IMG/VR virus record: IMGVR_UViG_2681813186_000015
Strand: one strand, 5' to 3'
Length of the DNA stretch: 10,303 bases
Source of the DNA: a virus
Lineage: Duplodnaviria > Heunggongvirae > Uroviricota > Caudoviricetes
Below the pieces are notes generated by a model, which did not search any database, had not been told where the DNA came from, and worked only from the letters and a program-made list of their open reading frames with translations. Positions within the stretch are counted from its first letter, which is position 1, and each line of letters opens with the position of its first letter. Below are positions 2,391 to 10,303 of the stretch, piece after piece. Both the position numbers and the translations under genes were made by a program.

Positions 2391-2912
2391 ATGGCAAAGT
2401 CAAACGTTAGCGTGCAGGCATTCAAGGACTTCCTTGAAGAGCTTATGTCGCTGAACATAATGAAGGAGGCCACCGCTCGAAATTTAAAAAACTCATCCGC
2501 TCGCCTCTTAACGGTAGTCCAAGAAGAGGAAATGGGTGATGTTACTCAGCTTGATGTGAATGAGCTTGCCGAGCGATACATCAACGCAACTGAGCCGAAG
2601 CCTAGCGACAGCAGCATTACTGCATATAAAAGCCGCATGGAAAGTGCAATCAAAAAGTTTGTAGCTTTCCAGTCTGGTGAAGAAATCCCATACACTCCGA
2701 TTGACAAAGAATCCAGTGAGGAAAAAGATTTGACTGGCGAACCAACAAAAGTCGAAGGCAAGGCTAATGCACTTCATACCTATGATCTTCCAGTAGTTCT
2801 TCGACCTGAATCAGGGGTTACAGTAACGATTAAAGGCATTCCTAACGATATCACAAACGAAGAAGCCGAACGCATCTCTTCAATTCTGAAGGTTTACGTT
2901 CGGCCTCAATAA
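2391..2912 (+). CDS. Hypothetical acidic 173-aa protein of unknown function, inserted between cI and pL (accessory 'moron' gene)
   Basis: Complete ORF with a GAGAG-type ribosome-binding site; candidate own promoter upstream and hairpin downstream; lies after the cI terminators and before pL. Appears more AT-rich than neighbouring phage genes (by eye). Soluble, rich in D/E, no motif I can assign. Confidence 0.6.
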   Translation: MAKSNVSVQAFKDFLEELMSLNIMKEATARNLKNSSARLLTVVQEEEMGDVTQLDVNELAERYINATEPKPSDSSITAYKSRMESAIKKFVAFQSGEEIPYTPIDKESSEEKDLTGEPTKVEGKANALHTYDLPVVLRPESGVTVTIKGIPNDITNEEAERISSILKVYVRPQ

Positions 2913-4584: not shown

Positions 4585-4721
4585 CCATTAATCACCAGAT
4601 GCTTCGTGCTGCACAGAACAAAGCAGTAATAGCCCGATTTATTGGTGATTCAAAAATGTGGCTTGAAGCAAATAAAGCGATGAAATCAGCTATCAACCTT
4701 CCGTGGTATCGCAGGAAATGA
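4569..4721 (+). CDS. kil: Kil-like small protein (tentative), 50 aa
   Basis: ATG 4569 with GGAGG (4560-4564) 4 nt upstream, overlapping the cIII-like stop; MRNEIAINHQMLRAAQNKAVIARFIGDSKMWLEANKAMKSAINLPWYRRK; the IARFIGDSKMW segment resembles the FIGDEKM region I recall in lambda Kil; gene order cIII then kil as in lambda. Confidence 0.4.
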   Translation: MRNEIAINHQMLRAAQNKAVIARFIGDSKMWLEANKAMKSAINLPWYRRK

Positions 4722-4796
4722 GTTTTACAGATAACTGGTCAGACGAAGAATTCATTCGTCAGATGAAAGATTTAATCGGTAACGAAGGAGATATTC

Positions 4797-4967
4797 ATGT
4801 CACTTGCAACCACAGTGAAGGAGAGCAAGTTACAGAGACGCATGTACACGCAGAAAGCTCTCTGGTATCGCCATAATGGCGACCGCGAAGGAATGCGGGT
4901 ATGCCTTAATTTGTCCCGAGTCGAAGTATTAAATCAGCGTTATTTTCTTGGGCCATGTCCATTCTGA
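4797..4967 (+). CDS. Hypothetical small protein, 56 aa
   Basis: ATG 4797 with AAGGAG (4785-4790) 6 nt upstream; MSLATTVKESKLQRRMYTQKALWYRHNGDREGMRVCLNLSRVEVLNQRYFLGPCPF; stop 4965-4967 is followed 8 nt later by the start of the annealing-protein gene. A competing 52-aa ORF (4718-4876, other frame, ATGA overlap with the Kil-like stop) has weaker Shine-Dalgarno support. Confidence 0.4.
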   Translation: MSLATTVKESKLQRRMYTQKALWYRHNGDREGMRVCLNLSRVEVLNQRYFLGPCPF

Positions 4968-4975
4968 GGTGAATT

Positions 4976-5683
4976 ATGGATTTGAACAAATTCGATGAGC
5001 CATTCAGCCCTGAAGATATCGAATGGCGAATACAGCAAAGCGGTAAAACACGCGATGGAAAGGTGTGGGCTATGGTGCTGGCTTATGTCACGAACAGGGC
5101 AATCATGAAACGCCTGGATGATGTTTGCGGCAAAGCAGGATGGCGCAATGAATACCGCGATATTCCCAACAACGGCGGCGTTGAATGCGGCATATCAATA
5201 AAGATTGATTCCGAATGGGTAACCAAATGGGATGCTGCTGAAAACACGCAGGTAGAAGCCGTCAAAGGTGGTCGTTCCGGTGCAATGAAGCGCGCTGCCG
5301 TTCAGTGGGGAATCGGTCGGTATCTGTATAACCTTGAGGAAGGTTTCGCACAAACATCTCTCGATAAAAAGCAGGGGTGGCACAGGGCAAAACTGAAGGA
5401 TGGAACAGGATTTTACTGGCTCCCTCCATCGCTTCCGGGATGGGCAATCCCAGCATCAGATAACAAACCATCACCAGAAAATACCAACCAGAAATCTCCA
5501 TCGGTTGACTGCGAACAAATCCTGAAAGACTTCAGCGATTATGCGTCAACAGAAACTGACAAGAAAAAACTCATCGAGCGTTATCAGCGTGACTGGCAAT
5601 TAATGGCTGGCAACGAGGAAGCGCAGGCTAAATGCGTTCAGGTAATGAACATCAGAGTTAACGAACTAAAACAGGCGGCATAA
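4976..5683 (+). CDS. Rad52/22-family single-strand annealing protein (phage recombinase, Sak/Erf functional analogue)
   Basis: 235 aa; IMKRLDDVCGKAGWRNEY and KGGRSGAMKRAAVQWGIGRYLY match conserved Rad52 N-terminal-domain signatures; GAGG upstream; directly followed by ssb. Confidence 0.8.
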   Translation: MDLNKFDEPFSPEDIEWRIQQSGKTRDGKVWAMVLAYVTNRAIMKRLDDVCGKAGWRNEYRDIPNNGGVECGISIKIDSEWVTKWDAAENTQVEAVKGGRSGAMKRAAVQWGIGRYLYNLEEGFAQTSLDKKQGWHRAKLKDGTGFYWLPPSLPGWAIPASDNKPSPENTNQKSPSVDCEQILKDFSDYASTETDKKKLIERYQRDWQLMAGNEEAQAKCVQVMNIRVNELKQAA

Positions 5684-6190
5684 ATGGCAAGCAGAGGCGT
5701 AAATAAGGTGATTATCCTTGGTCGGGTAGGACAAGACCCGGAAGTTCGATACTCACCATCAGGAACAGCGTTCGCTAACCTGACAATAGCCACGTCAGAA
5801 CAATGGCGAGATAAAAATACTGGCGAGCAAAAGGAATTGACTGAATGGCATCGTGTTGCTGTATCCGGGAAACTGGCTGAGGTCGTGGGGCAGTATGTGA
5901 AAAAAGGTGATCAGATTTATTTCGAAGGAATGCTGAGAACCAGAAAGTGGAAAGACCAGTCAGGGCAAGACCGTTACACAACCGAGGTTCATGTCGGAAT
6001 TAATGGCGTGATGCAAATGCTTGGCGGCATTGGCGACAGCAAACAACAAGCAGCCAGCAGGCAATCACAGAAGCCACAGCAGCAATCATCACCAGCACAA
6101 CACAACGAACCTCCGATGGATTTTGACGACGATATACCCTTTGCACCAGTAACTCTCCCCTTCCCTCGTCACGCTATTCACGCAATTTAA
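5684..6190 (+). CDS. ssb: Single-stranded DNA-binding protein (SSB), with a 15-aa extension beyond the canonical DDDIPF terminus
   Basis: [23 protein letters not shown]…TEWHRV…[19 protein letters not shown]…MDFDDDIPF is near-identical in pattern to E. coli SSB; the ORF continues [15 protein letters not shown] before TAA at 6188-6190. Start abuts the upstream stop (TAAATG). Confidence 0.9.
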
Positions 6191-6198
6191 GGACTTAC

Positions 6199-6747
6199 AT
6201 GAATCACTTAATGGTTGACCTTGAAACAATGGGCAACGGGCCATACGCGCCAGTTATTTCTATTGGGGCGGTATTCTTTGACCCGAATACCGGAGAAACA
6301 GGAGAAGAGTTCTCGGTAAATATCTCGCTTGAGTCATCAATGCGATATCGGGCGCGTCCTGACGCTTCAACGATTTTATGGTGGATGGAACAGAGTGAAG
6401 AAGCCAGAAAATCGCTAACCAGCAACACTCAAGAGCTTTCAACGGCTCTTTCATGGTTATCTGAATTCATCATAAAGAACGCTAACCACAAATTCGTTCA
6501 GGTTTGGGGGAATGGAGCATCATTTGACTGCGTTATTCTCCGAAACAGTTATTCGCTGACAGGGCAGCCAGTTCCGTGGCAGTGGTGGAATGACCGCGAC
6601 GTAAGAACAATCGTCGAACTTGGGAAGGTAATAGGATTCGACCCTAAGCGAGATATGCCATTCAAAGGAACTCGCCACAACGCGCTTGATGATGCCATTC
6701 ACCAAGCCAAATACGTTTCAGCGATCTGGAAAAAGTTAGCTAAATAA
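6199..6747 (+). CDS. DEDDh-family (DnaQ-like) 3'-5' exonuclease
   Basis: 182 aa; Exo I motif MVDLETMG, Exo II WGNGASFD, Exo III RHNALDDAIHQA (H-x4-D); AAGGA 5 nt upstream of ATG 6199. Confidence 0.75.
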   Translation: MNHLMVDLETMGNGPYAPVISIGAVFFDPNTGETGEEFSVNISLESSMRYRARPDASTILWWMEQSEEARKSLTSNTQELSTALSWLSEFIIKNANHKFVQVWGNGASFDCVILRNSYSLTGQPVPWQWWNDRDVRTIVELGKVIGFDPKRDMPFKGTRHNALDDAIHQAKYVSAIWKKLAK

Positions 6748-6763
6748 TCAACAGGAGAAAACC

Positions 6764-7060
6764 ATGCCAGCGCCTCTGTATGGTGCGGATGACGCGCGCC
6801 GCTGTTCCGGCAATTCCGTATCGGAGGTGCTGGATAAATTCAGGAAAAACTACGACAGGATAATGTCGCTACCGCAGGAAACGAAAGAGGAAAAGGAATT
6901 TCGCCACTGTATATGGCTTGCAGAGAAAGAAGAACGCGAGCGAATTTACCAGACATCAATCCGACCATTCCGCAAAGCCACATATACCCACTTCCCTGAA
7001 TATATCGACCCGCGCCTGCGTAATTACCGCTCACGCTATGGCGCTATCAGTAATGGTTGA
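6764..7060 (+). CDS. Hypothetical protein, 98 aa
   Basis: ATG 6764 with AGGAG (6753-6757) 6 nt upstream; basic and acidic stretches; no homology recognised. Confidence 0.6.
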   Translation: MPAPLYGADDARRCSGNSVSEVLDKFRKNYDRIMSLPQETKEEKEFRHCIWLAEKEERERIYQTSIRPFRKATYTHFPEYIDPRLRNYRSRYGAISNG

Positions 7061-7070
7061 GGAATTAACA

Positions 7071-7361
7071 ATGAAAACAATGAAGCTAAACATCGACCTC
7101 GGCAAATACGTTATTACCGGAACCAAACACGACCTGATTCTTAGTGAAAGAGGAATTATCAAAGAAGGTGAGAATGCAGGGAAAGAAACACTAAGTCGTA
7201 TCGGTTATTACAGCAAGTTTGAGCATCTGGTTAAAGAGTTATGCAACCGTGAAATTCTGTTATCTCAGGCGCAGACGTTACAGGATATTCAGCAGCATAT
7301 CGAGACTGTATGTGTGTCACTTAGCATGGCTATTGACCAGTTCGTGGAGAGTAAATCATGA
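7071..7361 (+). CDS. Hypothetical protein, 96 aa
   Basis: Internal ATG 7071 with GAGGAA (7059-7064) 6 nt upstream, right after the previous stop; the track ORF start at 6918 overlaps the preceding gene and was rejected. Confidence 0.6.
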
Positions 7362-7522
7362 GGGGACTTGCATACAATCCCGGCATTCTTCCGGCAGAAA
7401 TGATTATTCGCCAACGCGTAAAGCCAATGCCATCGAGAGAGGAATTGCTTAAGAGAAATTCTTTTCCATCAGTGAATCAAAACAAATATCTGAATGCGAT
7501 GTGGCGGAGTGGGAAGAAATGA
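7358..7522 (+). CDS. Hypothetical small protein, 54 aa, translationally coupled on both sides
   Basis: ATG 7358 overlaps the upstream stop (ATGA); GGAGAG 7 nt upstream; its stop TGA 7520-7522 overlaps the next start ATG 7519 (ATGA); [54 protein letters not shown]. Confidence 0.4.
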
Positions 7523-8019
7523 AACAAATGACACTAATTGAGATGGATGGTTTTCTGAAAGGTGAATGCATCCCACGAGATTTAAAGGTTAACGAAACAA
7601 ACGCTGAATATCTTGTCCGTAAGTTCGGTGAACTTGAATCAAAACTAGAAACGGCGTTGCGGGAGTGTCGTTCTGCTGGAATCACGATTGATAACCTTGA
7701 GGCCAAGTGCGCGGCGCTGGTAGCGGAGAGTGCGGGGATGAAGAAGTTCTGCAAAGACGCTGCATTCGATGCCGATTACGAAGCAGAGCTAGGTATGGAG
7801 CGTGGTGGATTCAGTGATGCGCTTAACGAAATCAAAACCCCAGCCACCGATGCTTTCCTGGCTGAAGTCCGGGCTAAGGCGTTTGATGACCTTTGCGCGG
7901 CGTTCGTTAAGCACGCGTCGGTGTCCGGGCTGGACGATGGCGACTGCGTTACGGTGAAAGAGGCGACTGACGCTCTGCTGCATTGTGCGGAACAGCTTCA
8001 CGAGGGAGTGCATTCATGA
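7519..8019 (+). CDS. Hypothetical protein, 166 aa
   Basis: ATG 7519 chosen over the track GTG start at 7501; acidic, Ala-rich; no motif recognised. Confidence 0.6.
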
Positions 8020-8249
8020 GCAACCTACTACCATGTCCATTCTGTGGCGGCGCAGCGCACGTTGCCAGCGAAGCAGATCACCCTGAATATGGCTCTGGCG
8101 GTCGATTCTATTTCGTTCGATGCGGTACGTGTCGCGCTCAATCTGGTAGCAAATATGCAGCGCCTGGAAATGACTGCGCGATTTTTTATTCAGAGGTTAG
8201 AGCAGAGTGGAATCAGCGAGCAAAGGAGGCAACCAGTGAGCGAAATTGA
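8016..8249 (+). CDS. lar: Lar-family restriction-alleviation protein (small zinc-ribbon protein)
   Basis: ATG 8016 overlaps the upstream stop (ATGA); GAGGGAG 7 nt upstream; 77 aa with CPFCGG … CGTC … AEWNQRA, matching the Lar family pattern as I recall it (CPFCGG N-terminal knuckle, WNRRA-type C-terminus). Confidence 0.65.
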   Translation: MSNLLPCPFCGGAAHVASEADHPEYGSGGRFYFVRCGTCRAQSGSKYAAPGNDCAIFYSEVRAEWNQRAKEATSERN

Positions 8250-8832
8250 CTATCAGGCACTGCGTGAGGCGGCGGAACGTGCAATTCCAGCAATGGAACG
8301 CCTGTTAATGTTGCCAGTTGATGATGATTTGTTAAGTGAACAGGAACTTAAAGATTACGGTGTGGATATTGATGCGCTCAACGCCTTCAAATTTCTGGCC
8401 GGACCAGAAACCGTGCTGGCACTACTGGATGAGATCAACGCATTAGAGGAAACGCGTATCAACGATGTTTGCCGTATTGCGGAACTAACAAAACAACTGG
8501 AGTCGGCAAAATCAAAACTCAACGAGCAGCGTGAATATTACGAGGGAGTAATCTCGGATGGGAGTAAGCGTATTGCAGAACTGGAAAGCAACGAAGTCCG
8601 TGAAGACGGAAATCAGTTTCTTGTTGTTCGCCACCCCGGGAAAACTCCTGTCATCAAGCACTGCACTGGTGACCTGGAAGAGTTTCTGCGGAAGTTAATC
8701 GAACAAGACCCGTTAGTAACTATCGACATCATTACGCATCGCTATTACGGGATTGGCGGTCAATGGGTTCAGGATGCAGTTGAGTATCTGCATATGATGT
8801 CTGACGCAGGTATTCGCATCAAAGGAGAGTGA
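8236..8832 (+). CDS. Hypothetical protein with predicted coiled-coil segment, 198 aa; start uncertain
   Basis: GTG 8236 preceded by AAGGAGG (8223-8229) with 6-nt spacer, overlapping the Lar stop by 14 nt; earlier in-frame ATGs (8089, 8155) lie inside the Lar gene; central heptad-like region INALEETRINDVCRIAELTKQLESAKSKLNEQ. Confidence 0.5.
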   Translation: MSEIDYQALREAAERAIPAMERLLMLPVDDDLLSEQELKDYGVDIDALNAFKFLAGPETVLALLDEINALEETRINDVCRIAELTKQLESAKSKLNEQREYYEGVISDGSKRIAELESNEVREDGNQFLVVRHPGKTPVIKHCTGDLEEFLRKLIEQDPLVTIDIITHRYYGIGGQWVQDAVEYLHMMSDAGIRIKGE

Positions 8833-8833
8833 T

Positions 8834-9382
8834 ATGACCACTATAACCGATAAGAAACAGTATCCCAGCAAGCAATATCTTAATGAGCTGATCACCAACA
8901 TAGAGTTTGCTGCAAGGGCACCAGTTGAAGTCGTGAGAGCGATGGCAGCAGAGCTACAGAAGCGGCGCGAAGCTGATAGTGCAGAACCTGTAAGCCAAAC
9001 TTACAAGTTGCCAGTTAATACACCTTGCCAAGATGCGCCAGCCCATATCTGGCTGCAAACGGCTGGAGTATGGCCAGAAGATGGCGAGTTAAGCGAATTA
9101 ACGTGGTGCAGCCACAATCAGCACCATGATGACACGCTATATGTTCGAGCTGACCTTGTGAATGGCAACTCTCCGGTAATTCCGGATGGTTGGATAAGCT
9201 GTAGTGAGCGAATGCCGGATAAGTTAATTCCGGTAATGGTCATGTATGAAGACGGTGAGATGTGGTCTGCAATGTGGAATGGTAATCGCTGGGATGATGG
9301 CACCGAATATCCGGATCCGCACTCAGTTACGCACTGGCGTGAAATGCCAGCAGCACCGAAGCAGGAGGTTAACCGTGGCTAA
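8834..9382 (+). CDS. DUF551-like phage protein
   Basis: 182 aa; ATG 8834 with AAAGGAGAG upstream; C-terminal …SVTHWREMPAAPK resembles the conserved DUF551 C-terminal signature (…THWMPLPEPP) as I recall it. Confidence 0.6.
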   Translation: MTTITDKKQYPSKQYLNELITNIEFAARAPVEVVRAMAAELQKRREADSAEPVSQTYKLPVNTPCQDAPAHIWLQTAGVWPEDGELSELTWCSHNQHHDDTLYVRADLVNGNSPVIPDGWISCSERMPDKLIPVMVMYEDGEMWSAMWNGNRWDDGTEYPDPHSVTHWREMPAAPKQEVNRG

Positions 9383-9659
9383 CCTGCAACTTGCCGTTAA
9401 AGGTGAATACTTCGATGCCATGATTCGCGGAGAGAAAACGGAAGAGTATCGCCTGTGTAATGACTACTGGAAAAAGCGCCTCGTTAACCGTAAGTATGAC
9501 CGCCTGATTATCACAAAGGGATATCCGAAGCGCGACGACTTCAGTCGCAGAATTGATGTCCCGTATGACGGATATGAAATCAAGACAATCACACATCCCC
9601 ACTTCGGCGATAAACCGGTAAAGGTATACGCGATAAAGGTGAATATCAGCAATGAATAA
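9375..9659 (+). CDS. Hypothetical protein, 94 aa
   Basis: GTG 9375 preceded by AGGAGG (9363-9368) with 6-nt spacer, overlapping the upstream stop; the track ORF start at 9246 lies inside the previous gene. Confidence 0.5.
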   Translation: MANLQLAVKGEYFDAMIRGEKTEEYRLCNDYWKKRLVNRKYDRLIITKGYPKRDDFSRRIDVPYDGYEIKTITHPHFGDKPVKVYAIKVNISNE

Positions 9660-9730
9660 CAATCCTCGCATTCGCGGGGATTTCTTTTATCTGAACTCGC
9701 TACGGCGGGTTTTGTTTTATGGAGATGATT

Positions 9731-10030
9731 ATGGCCTGTTCAACATTCAACCCTCTAACGTTACAGAAATACCAGCCAGACCCTGAAGATTTATGCTCAC
9801 TGTGTGGCGGAAATCATGGTAAAGCAGCCATGATCGAATGTAAGGACAAAATCCACATTTGCCTTAATTGCGTTGATGTCCTCGTTGATATCAAAAATGA
9901 GAGAGAAGATAAAAAGCGTAGCGAGGCTGTTCGCGCCTTAGATTCATGGATGCGAGATGGATATAGTGCCGCGCAAATTTATGACTTAGCAATATCAAAA
10001 GGCGAAATACCAGGAGTACGCATCGAATAA
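9731..10030 (+). CDS. Hypothetical Cys-rich protein (possible zinc-ribbon), 99 aa
   Basis: ATG 9731 with GGAG (9721-9724) 6 nt upstream (alternative ATGs at 9719 and 9725); CSLCGG … CLNC spacing suggests a four-Cys metal site. Confidence 0.55.
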   Translation: MACSTFNPLTLQKYQPDPEDLCSLCGGNHGKAAMIECKDKIHICLNCVDVLVDIKNEREDKKRSEAVRALDSWMRDGYSAAQIYDLAISKGEIPGVRIE

Positions 10031-10072
10031 GACGTAACCGATATTCGAATTGAAGAACTGAAAGAACACCAA

Positions 10073-10096
10073 GCCGCCTGATGGCGGTTTCTTTTT
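10073..10096 (+). terminator. Rho-independent terminator upstream of the excisionase-like gene
   Basis: CCGCC (10074-10078) pairs with GGCGG (10083-10087), loop TGAT, followed by TTTCTTTTT. Confidence 0.6.
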
Positions 10097-10111
10097 GCCT
10101 GGAGAATTAAG

Positions 10112-10303
10112 ATGACCGATACCAGCCTGATTCCTGAGAAAGAAGTGATGAACAAGCTCGGTGTTTCATCACGTCAGACAATCTGGAACTATACCAAACG
10201 GCACGGATTTCCGAAGCCAGTCAGAACCCACCCCAAATCATACCTTCGTGAAGCTGTTGAAGGGTGGATTCTTAACGGTGGCGTTAATCAGAAATGCTCC
10301 TGA
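10112..10303 (+). CDS. AlpA-family phage transcriptional regulator / excisionase-like protein
   Basis: 63 aa; ATG 10112 with GGAG 7 nt upstream; LIPEKEVMNKLGVSSRQTIWNYTKRHGFPKPVR is the typical AlpA/Xis-type HTH pattern; sits at the distal end of the early-left operon where xis precedes int in lambdoid phages. Confidence 0.75.
   Translation: MTDTSLIPEKEVMNKLGVSSRQTIWNYTKRHGFPKPVRTHPKSYLREAVEGWILNGGVNQKCS

Follow-up and report, generated by a model that had tools for sequence, protein, structure and literature searches.

We found that positions 6764-9659 of the 10,303-nucleotide window (the whole stretch of viral DNA analysed here) very probably correspond to what is known as exo-xis in lambda and as ea in P22: a mosaic of cassettes that makes up the accessory part of the PL operon, here in a lambda-like E. 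coli prophage. These cassettes are exchanged among lambdoid, P22-like and Stx phages. Like exo-xis and ea regions, the block has recombination genes on one side and xis/int on the other, runs on the PL strand, and is variable in content with conserved flanks. In kind it is already known: its eight genes are ordinary lambdoid exo-xis accessory genes, two of which are characterised while the others fall into common named families.

The block had initially been described as a tightly packed set of ORFs with overlapping stop and start codons, located in a lambdoid early-left (PL) operon, and both parts of this description hold. All eight ORFs lie on the plus strand (Table 1), and 99.6% of the block is coding. 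ATGA stop/start overlaps were read directly in the sequence at 7358-7361, 7519-7522 and 8016-8019; the remaining junctions are overlaps of 14 nt (8236-8249) and 8 nt (9375-9382) and gaps of 10 nt (7060/7071) and 1 nt (8832/8834). A Shine-Dalgarno-like motif of the GGAG, GAGG or AGGAGG type stands 5-10 nt 5' of all eight starts, including the two GTG starts at 8236 (AAGGAGG upstream) and 9375 (AGGAGG upstream). Since all eight have matches to Pfam or PHROG families (E = 1e-12 to 1e-61), we consider these to be real genes rather than chance ORFs. The gene order of the window, cII and cro (both on the minus strand), cI, N, cIII, kil, Rad52-type annealase, SSB, 3'-5' exonuclease, the block and xis, is that of a lambdoid prophage. 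The recombination genes are identified by Pfam matches to Rad52_Rad22 (E = 5e-26), SSB (E = 1.6e-36) and the Rv2179c-like exonuclease (E = 2.8e-73), and in a near-identical prophage the gene matching 10112..10303 is annotated as an excisionase and is followed by an integrase.

Table 1. Features of the block and its flanks, with the matches on which each assignment is based
Feature	Position	Strand	Basis
Recombination module (Rad52-type annealase, SSB, 3'-5' exonuclease), upstream of block	4976..6747	+	Pfam
abc2, anti-RecBCD protein 2, 98 aa (ORF1)	6764..7060	+	Pfam PF11043, PHROG 656, PDB match
DUF5405 protein, 96 aa (ORF2)	7071..7361, possibly from 7080	+	Pfam PF17399, PHROG 154
DUF2737 protein, P22 orf56 homologue, 54 aa (ORF3)	7358..7522	+	Pfam PF10930
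EaE-like mosaic protein, 166 aa (ORF4)	7519..8019	+	PHROG 614, E = 1.7e-54
Lar-family zinc-ribbon protein, 77 aa (ORF5)	8016..8249	+	Pfam PF14354, 38.5 bits (gathering score 28.6)
ea22 orthologue, 198 aa, GTG start (ORF6)	8236..8832	+	Pfam Ead_Ea22, PDB 8dsx
DUF551 protein, 182 aa, unrelated N-terminal half (ORF7)	8834..9382	+	Pfam PF04448
Small protein, PGAP name 'ASCH domain-containing', 94 aa, GTG start (ORF8)	9375..9659	+	PHROG 625, E = 9e-50
Two putative terminator-like hairpins, directly 3' of ORF8	9661-9682, 9693-9712	+	Consensus scan; T-run after each
Excisionase-like gene, downstream of block	10112..10303	+	PHROG 66 'excisionase and transcriptional regulator', E = 1.9e-8

Consensus scans of the block found no promoter-like sites (0 compared to 6.0 +/- 2.7 expected) and no terminator-like hairpin on the plus strand within 6764-9659. 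Together with the gene layout and its overlapping stop and start codons, the absence of internal signals in these scans suggests that the eight genes would be transcribed from PL as one unit subject to N antitermination, silent in the lysogen and translationally coupled.

The relatives of the block show the exchange of cassettes. An annotated prophage next to ybhC in E. coli OkiPb01713 (NZ_AP042682.1) contains all 2896 nt of the block at 100% identity, and E. coli 2313 (NZ_AP027159.1) matches 87% of it at 99% identity; both carry these eight genes, for which PGAP annotations already exist. The OkiPb01713 prophage differs in that IS3 elements disrupt the region upstream of SSB and different genes lie between cI and N, and no record in the searched collections covers 80% or more of the whole window. 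Parts of the block were present in 3423 of the 5426 complete E. coli genomes, and at least 80% of the block in 2 of the 5426. Among IMG/VR loci, many different combinations of ORFs follow abc2, and other prophages and phages carry alternative cassettes on the same scaffold. As an exact copy of an annotated prophage segment, the block matters little as it stands, and such regions are recognised phage 'dark matter' with a literature of their own, at which large-scale screens are already aimed. Its value is as a pointer to five common families without an assigned function, which thousands of prophages of E. coli and Salmonella carry, Stx phages included.

The initial annotation counted seven ORFs of no known function, a number that is wrong since 6764-7060 encodes Abc2 and 8236-8832 encodes Ea22. 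Residues 1-97 of ORF1 align with positions 1-96 of the 97 in the PF11043 profile (E = 4.7e-61; 203.4 bits, cut-off 25), and the protein matches the PHROG family labelled 'abc2 anti-RecBCD', is 92% identical to P22 Abc2 and matches PDB entries 8b1t and 8b1u, 'Anti-RecBCD protein 2' (E = 2e-55), 8B1T being the solved structure of Abc2 with RecBCD. ORF1 also retains Pro68 (...SIRP68F...), the residue at the PpiB site whose role in P22 Abc2 has been described (PMC9836394). Thus, ORF1 is Abc2, a P22-type anti-RecBCD protein, with predicted RecC binding and RecBCD modification. P22 Abc2 has been shown to bind RecC and to redirect RecBCD (PMC9836394); because of the high identity between the two proteins, we infer that Abc2 of this prophage would likewise bind the Chi-recognition domains of host RecC and redirect RecBCD to the phage annealase, which here is of the Rad52 type.

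A small addition of the present work is that full-length DUF2737 is almost always found beside abc2. ORF3 matches PF10930 over its full length (E = 2.6e-31; 107.7 bits, cut-off 25) and is 75% identical to P22 orf56. The abc2 and DUF2737 genes occurred together in 46 of 46 and 55 of 55 IMG/VR loci and directly adjoined each other in 132 of 147 related loci, while in 15 of the 147 a DUF5405 cassette of about 300 nt lay between them. In every locus checked the two are neighbours, even where Abc2 is only 62% identical, and the C-terminal half of DUF2737 occurs in about 420 further phage records beyond the approximately 225 with abc2. Since the linkage was counted mostly in close relatives with conserved DNA in common, the two genes may be kept together by a shared recombination boundary and not by a joint function. 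Nevertheless, based on this near-constant adjacency, DUF2737 probably works with Abc2 or with the recombination module, and might conceivably either supply a part that the Abc2/RecBCD hijack still lacks or protect against defences that are alerted by inhibition of RecBCD. The near-constant pairing provides a concrete and cheap hypothesis on how Abc2-type phages handle RecBCD.

These observations bear on the idea that the recombination module extends into the block, such that DUF5405 and DUF2737 are accessory recombination factors like P22 Abc1 and Arf, acting on RecBCD, SSB or the annealase. Consistent with this idea, full-length DUF2737 and Abc2 occur in nearly the same number of phage records (223 vs 225) and remain neighbours even where Abc2 has diverged, the block directly follows the Rad52, SSB and exonuclease genes, and the P22 system is known to need further small uncharacterised proteins (PMC9836394). 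However, all of this support is linkage, the DUF5405 model matches neither PC4-like nor other ssDNA-binding folds significantly, and the C-terminal motif of DUF2737 is found in many phage records that have no full-length copy. We therefore regard this idea as rather doubtful.

A second small addition concerns the DUF5405 protein itself, which has a confidently predicted fold that lacks a solved counterpart and recurs in small predicted proteins from phages of both Gram-negative and Gram-positive hosts. ORF2 matches PF17399 at 24.6 bits (cut-off 21.6) and PHROG 154 at E = 3e-32; PGAP places its start 9 nt later, at the methionine (window position 7080) at which many homologues likewise begin. 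Its AF2 model (pLDDT 92) consists of four beta strands followed by two helices. A search with this model found no solved structure that matched significantly, and the ORF2 alignment, used as a profile against the PDB, returned coiled-coil noise only. Among predicted structures in BFVD, the model matched DUF5405 proteins (TM 0.75-0.85, E = 2e-8 to 2e-7) and also small predicted proteins of diverse phages. We rejected the label 'replication initiation protein' that PHROG 154 carries, which was apparently carried over from a few phage records and for which we found nothing in support.

The EaE-like protein has no Pfam match above threshold; it is 43% identical to P22 EaE over 82 residues, and the exact ORF4 protein is found on 981 contigs. 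Its alignment is conserved at the N-terminus (residues 1-44) and in a C-terminal domain (residues 106-166) but variable between them, and neither a direct search nor a profile search with this alignment matched the PDB (the latter giving coiled-coil noise only). PHROG 368 and PHROG 14548 each match both ORF4 and ORF6, a sign of mosaic partners in common; we rejected the reading of the pair as paralogues, as they have no direct similarity (BLASTP E = 17). In the DUF551 protein, the family match is confined to C-terminal residues 119-176 (E = 8.6e-18; 65.4 bits, cut-off 22), the protein is 42% identical to the C-terminus of P22 EaA, and PHROG 6847 matches residues 1-61 only. The last protein owes its 'ASCH' name to the PGAP annotation, and the match is weak: ORF8 matches ASCH (PF04266) at 14.6 bits, under the cut-off of 21.2, over residues 6-29 only. 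Its homologues gave sub-threshold ASCH matches in 20 of 35 close and 5 of 46 distant cases (best E = 0.002-0.003), with two matching DUF3850, also below threshold. A total of 1266 cluster representatives match ORF8 at E <= 1e-3; searching the PDB by profile gave no match, and the AF2 model (mean pLDDT 53.5) is too poor for a fold search. The DUF5405, EaE-like, DUF551 and ASCH-like proteins would be accessory factors with no assignable activity.

The initial annotation had anchored the block on a Lar-family anti-restriction gene, and a Pfam Lar-family gene is indeed present, but the anchor proves weak. ORF5 exceeds the Pfam threshold (Table 1) and is named Lar family by PGAP, but scores 29.4 bits against the NCBIfam Lar model TIGR03655, under its cut-off of 39.6, and had no PDB match. 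The protein carries the motif CPFCGG...CGTC, in which C7-x2-C10 and C36-x2-C39 align with CPFCG...CNGC of RalR. With the Lar/RalR protein of the Rac prophage (b1348) it shares PF14354, the CPFCG...C..C zinc ribbon and a place in an early operon beside recombination genes, but the two are only 26% identical, over 42 residues. Alleviation of type I (EcoKI) restriction is itself disputed for Rac Lar/RalR, the founding member; a later study reports RalR as a toxin with DNase activity and without an inhibitory effect on restriction. A further difference from Rac is that we detected no RalA-like antisense RNA: there was no Rfam match and no promoter-like site on either strand at ORF5, and we rejected a type I toxin-antitoxin arrangement. 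We also rejected a fixed Lar-Ea22 gene pair, which four E. coli loci had suggested, as 6 of 8 Lar-containing IMG/VR loci have no Ea22 match. Type I restriction or DNA might conceivably be the target of the Lar-family protein.

These results bear on the proposal, made in the initial annotation, that the uncharacterised ORFs are candidate host-takeover factors or defence inhibitors. The proposal holds for Abc2, a true counter-defence or takeover factor, but not for Ea22, whose published role is pro-lysogenic. The profile and structure searches suggested there as a check placed Abc2 and Ea22 with characterised proteins of solved structure and the others in named families. In its strongest form, the proposal makes the block an anti-defence island, in which most of the uncharacterised ORFs inhibit restriction-modification or other defences and cluster around Lar and Abc2. 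The target of Abc2, RecBCD, is a hub of host immunity, the block does contain a Pfam Lar-family gene, and new counter-defence and trigger genes have come out of screens of variable accessory regions with known counter-defence genes such as abc2 or ral (bioRxiv 10.1101/2023.04.06.535777), regions that the block resembles in its cassette-like variability. Against this, the role documented for Ea22 is developmental, the founding Lar protein, of which ORF5 is only a distant relative, reportedly does not inhibit restriction, and none of the ORFs gave a match to any known anti-defence protein or fold. A PADLOC scan gave no defence-system match for any ORF of the block, and we found no paper tying DUF5405, DUF2737, DUF551 or the ASCH-like family to defence. 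For the DUF5405, DUF2737, EaE-like, DUF551 and ASCH-like ORFs, we found no informative solved-structure match and no functional literature; in the supplementary files of PMC12373910, the families of the block appear only in genome-neighbourhood tables and not among the tested genes. Because the Lar match is weak, Ea22 is developmental and five ORFs offer evidence in neither direction, anti-defence is a generic prior for regions of this kind rather than something the sequence shows, and we consider such an island unlikely. That at least one uncharacterised ORF is an unrecognised host-takeover factor seems more doubtful still; the best candidates are DUF2737 and DUF5405, the pair nearest abc2.

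The second characterised gene is ea22. Residues 2-117 of ORF6 match Ead_Ea22 (PF13935; E = 2.8e-24; 86.7 bits, cut-off 27), residues 118-198 match residues 8-88 of PDB 8dsx, the dimeric alpha/beta C-terminal domain of Ea22 (E = 1.6e-49), and the protein is 65% identical to lambda Ea22 over its full length. The start at 8236 (GTG) is in line with the lambda Ea22 N-terminus and with PGAP calls in two other prophages, while in the 100%-identical record PGAP places the start at the equivalent of 8155. Thus, ORF6 is a lambda-type Ea22, to which the tetramer and the pro-lysogenic phenotype, known for Ea22 of lambda and Phi24B (function in PMC7093339, PMC10834534), would carry over. By analogy with those phages, Ea22 would be a coiled-coil oligomer that biases infection toward lysogeny.

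The comparison with lambda exo-xis (orf60a, orf63, orf61, orf73, ea22, ea8.5) raises the possibility that the uncharacterised ORFs of the block tune the lysis-lysogeny decision, the timing of induction, host replication or the cell cycle, and do not act on defences. The block is positionally equivalent to exo-xis, preceded by recombination genes and followed by xis in the PL operon, with the same strand and the same early expression logic, and the Ea22 orthologue, with its C-terminal domain matching 8DSX, is common to both. The published exo-xis genes orf60a, orf61, orf63, ea8.5 and ea22 all affect lysogenisation or induction, and one paper (PMC4776307) places YfdS, which contains DUF551, in a cluster whose overexpression inhibits replication initiation. 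On the other hand, the target of Abc2 is recombination and RecBCD and not the developmental switch, and the block has no homologue of lambda orf60a, orf61, orf63 or ea8.5, so that the analogy is one of position and Ea22. Such a modulatory role is possible, and we put it forward tentatively. The recombination modules also differ, being Exo/Bet/Gam in lambda and Rad52/SSB/3'-5' exonuclease plus Abc2 here.

The PL accessory segment that we favour as the identity of the block also has a close counterpart in P22, whose ea region consists of abc2, orf56, eaE, orf45, eaF, eaD, eaI, eaA, eaG and eaC. P22 lacks the Lar-family, lambda-type Ea22 and ASCH-like genes, and has no DUF5405 cassette such as the block carries between abc2 and orf56; conversely, no homologues of abc1, eaF, eaI, eaG or eaC were detected in the block. 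The similarities to EaE and EaA (DUF551) are partial. In contrast, the order abc2, DUF2737 (orf56), EaE-like is common to both, with the first two proteins 92% and 75% identical to their P22 counterparts.

The block at 6764-9659 on the + strand is an ordinary, already annotated accessory segment of the exo-xis/ea type in a lambdoid PL operon (the region between the recombination genes and xis/int, called exo-xis in lambda and ea in P22). Its packing is real and far from chance: both the ORF list and the sequence contain the eight consecutive ORFs at the coordinates of the initial annotation, and all three of the ATGA stop/start overlaps claimed at 7358, 7519 and 8016 were found. Of the other junctions, two are overlaps (14 nt and 8 nt) and two are gaps (1 nt and 10 nt), and 99.6% of the block is coding. 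Shine-Dalgarno-like motifs precede all eight starts, the strongest being those of the two GTG starts (AAGGAGG, 8236; AGGAGG, 9375). Two start codons that PGAP sets elsewhere in an identical record are the sole corrections to the ORF list. In the 100%-identical RefSeq record (L001), PGAP starts the ead/Ea22 gene (L001 10392) at an ATG 81 nt upstream of 8236 (window 8155), resulting in a 95-nt overlap with the Lar gene. The GTG at 8236 is favored by its AAGGAGG motif, by the match to the lambda Ea22 N-terminus and by the PGAP calls in two other prophages, and the upstream start is probably a start-site mis-annotation.

The early-left placement was correct, as seen from the gene order running from cII, cro, cI, N, cIII and kil to xis; the window represents a lambdoid prophage's immunity and early-left region. 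Its minus strand encodes cII and a Cro-like HTH protein, while the + strand encodes, before the block, a LexA-like cI, a 173-aa gene, N, cIII, Kil, two small ORFs, a Rad52-type annealase, SSB and a 3'-5' exonuclease and, after it, a 103-aa ORF (ORF9) and an excisionase-like gene. A consensus scan of 6000-10303 on both strands yielded no sigma-70-like promoters (compared to 6.0 +/- 2.7 in shuffles), a depletion consistent with a long read-through operon. Likewise, the consensus scan found no + strand terminator-like hairpins inside the block, and an Rfam search of the whole window gave zero matches.

Features of the block and its surroundings (window coordinates)
Feature	Position	Strand	Remarks
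173-aa ORF between cI and N	2391-2912	+	full-length PHROG 2602 match
Small ORF between kil and annealase	4703-4876	+	PHROG 2123, labelled 'recombinase'
Small ORF between kil and annealase	4797-4967	+	PHROG 1723, labelled 'recombinase'
ORF1	6764-7060	+	ORF list and sequence
ORF2	7071-7361	+	ORF list and sequence
ORF3	7358-7522	+	ORF list and sequence
ORF4	7519-8019	+	ORF list and sequence
ORF5	8016-8249	+	ORF list and sequence
ORF6	8236-8832	+	GTG start; ORF list and sequence
ORF7	8834-9382	+	ORF list and sequence
ORF8	9375-9659	+	GTG start; ORF list and sequence
Terminator-like hairpins with T-runs	9661-9682, 9693-9712	+	first ones, directly 3' of ORF8
ORF9, 103 aa	9719-10030	+	PHROG 3680 over full length, E 2e-69
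Terminator-like hairpin with T-run	10071-10090	+	3' of ORF9

Four ORFs outside the block are also of note. The 173-aa ORF, which has no Pfam or PADLOC match, may be expressed in the lysogen; the corresponding site is occupied by rexAB and sieB in lambda and by DUF3024, a RuvC-family gene and a Ser/Thr kinase in the sibling prophage in L001. The two small ORFs upstream of the annealase overlap in different frames and may be Arf-like accessory recombination factors. ORF9 stands alone just upstream of xis, bracketed by the three + strand hairpins; its CxxC...CxxC motif yields a weak ClpX-type zinc-finger match (E 0.015).

Two of the seven ORFs initially described as of unknown function are characterised proteins with solved structures. 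ORF1 is Abc2 (full-length Pfam match, E 4.7e-61; 92% identity to P22 Abc2). It also matches Abc2 as solved by cryo-EM in complex with RecBCD (8B1T/8B1U; E 2e-55) and retains Pro68, which the structural study (PMC9836394) places in the active site of host PpiB. ORF6 is an Ea22 orthologue (65% full-length identity to the lambda protein), with an Ead_Ea22 domain at residues 2-117 and a match of residues 118-198 to the solved Ea22 C-terminal domain (8DSX; E 1.6e-49). Ea22 is a tetramer, and its deletion in lambda and Phi24B results in a shorter latent period, a larger burst and fewer host survivors, as well as reduced lysogenisation in lambda (PMC7093339, PMC10834534).

The Lar assignment held only in part: ORF5 scores above the threshold of Pfam Lar_restr_allev (38.5 bits; threshold 28.6), but falls below the NCBIfam Lar subfamily cut-off (29.4 bits; cut-off 39.6) and is a distant relative of Rac Lar/RalR, sharing just the zinc-ribbon core (26% identity over 42 residues). 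A PDB sequence search found no solved structure for the family. Moreover, a re-examination of RalR denied that it inhibits restriction modification and described it as the toxin, a non-specific DNase, in a type I toxin-antitoxin pair (PMC4041452). Since RalR reportedly is not an inhibitor, the ORF5 match to it is distant and the NCBIfam cut-off is missed, the Lar name is a weak ground for an anti-restriction neighborhood. For a RalA-like antitoxin at ORF5, we found neither a promoter signal (consensus scan) nor an RNA signal (Rfam).

The five other proteins indeed lack a known function, although they sit in named, very common families, and profile and structure searches gave an activity to no ORF beyond Abc2 and Ea22. 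PADLOC matched none of the block's ORFs, and PDB sequence searches with ORF2, ORF4, ORF5, ORF7 and ORF8 gave no informative match. ORF3 is DUF2737 (75% identity to P22 orf56), and the C-terminus of ORF7 is a DUF551 domain, as in P22 EaA. ORF2 is DUF5405, and its AlphaFold2 model (pLDDT 92; alignment of 38 homologues) places two helices after four antiparallel strands. This model had no significant match among solved structures; among predicted viral structures (BFVD), it matched DUF5405 proteins at TM 0.75-0.85 and, with E values of 1e-5 to 1e-3, uncharacterised predicted proteins of ~90-100 aa from phages of Bacillus, Lactobacillus and Cellulophaga; uncharacterised proteins of this size that resemble the model also come from enterobacterial phages. 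Thus, the predicted DUF5405 fold is widespread among phages, yet unannotated. ORF8 belongs to PHROG 625 and bears the PGAP name 'ASCH domain-containing'; its model is poor (pLDDT 53.5) and its Pfam ASCH match is below threshold, as in 20/35 close and 5/46 distant homologues, two homologues matching DUF3850 instead. ASCH membership is a plausible candidate assignment. ORF4 has no Pfam family, but matches PHROG 614 (E 1.7e-54) and P22 EaE (43% identity over 82 residues). Its alignment is mosaic, with a variable middle between a conserved N-terminus and a conserved C-terminal domain. ORF4 and ORF6 have no direct similarity; some PHROG families match both, pointing to exchange of parts between them in other phages.

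Abc2 and full-length DUF2737 travel together, occurring jointly in 46/46 Abc2-picked and 55/55 DUF2737-picked IMG/VR loci, in a sample biased toward close relatives. The genes directly adjoin in 132/147 loci, the remaining 15 having only a ~300-nt DUF5405 cassette between them, and adjacency is kept where Abc2 has 62% identity, as in Stx2a phages. In the phage collection, 225 records carry Abc2 and 223 carry full-length DUF2737. By itself, the C-terminal half of DUF2737 (residues 23-54; window 7424-7522; PHROG 4684) occurs in ~420 further phage records at 68-78% identity, mostly Salmonella/E. coli siphophages (e.g. SS3e, AG11, 'sidste'), which suggests a conserved short motif used beyond Abc2-carrying phages. 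The Abc2 structural paper (PMC9836394) makes no mention of orf56 or DUF2737, and we found no literature on either acting with Abc2. Because of the sampling bias and the C-terminal half found alone, we consider a functional tie to Abc2 a hypothesis.

Most likely, the block would supply accessory proteins of mixed kinds, made early, N-dependent and translationally coupled: Abc2 would hijack RecBCD to serve the recombination genes that the phage itself encodes and Ea22 would tilt infection toward lysogeny, while five proteins have no assignable activity. The proposal of candidate defence inhibitors in the block is a reasonable starting assumption for regions of this kind; in the present case Abc2 alone supports it, whereas it is weakened for Lar and contradicted for Ea22.

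The whole block is 100% identical (2896 nt) in a prophage annotated in E. coli OkiPb01713, where xis, int and ybhC follow. No record in the collections searched reaches 80% coverage of the whole window, and Stx2a-converting phages have ~99% identity to its immunity part. Of 5426 complete E. coli genomes, 3423 contain pieces of the block, as do 556 phage records, but the exact gene combination reaches a coverage of at least 80% in only two of those genomes. Other prophages keep the scaffold and exchange cassettes (e.g. dATP/dGTP pyrophosphohydrolase, YfdS, DUF4752, other Ea22 C-termini). Downstream gene content varies widely in IMG/VR loci picked by Abc2 or DUF2737, with Lar in 3, Ea22 in 13 and DUF5405 in 16 of the 46 picked by Abc2. 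This variability fits the 'accessory regions' already targeted by large screens, and is the same as that described for the lambda exo-xis and P22 ea regions.
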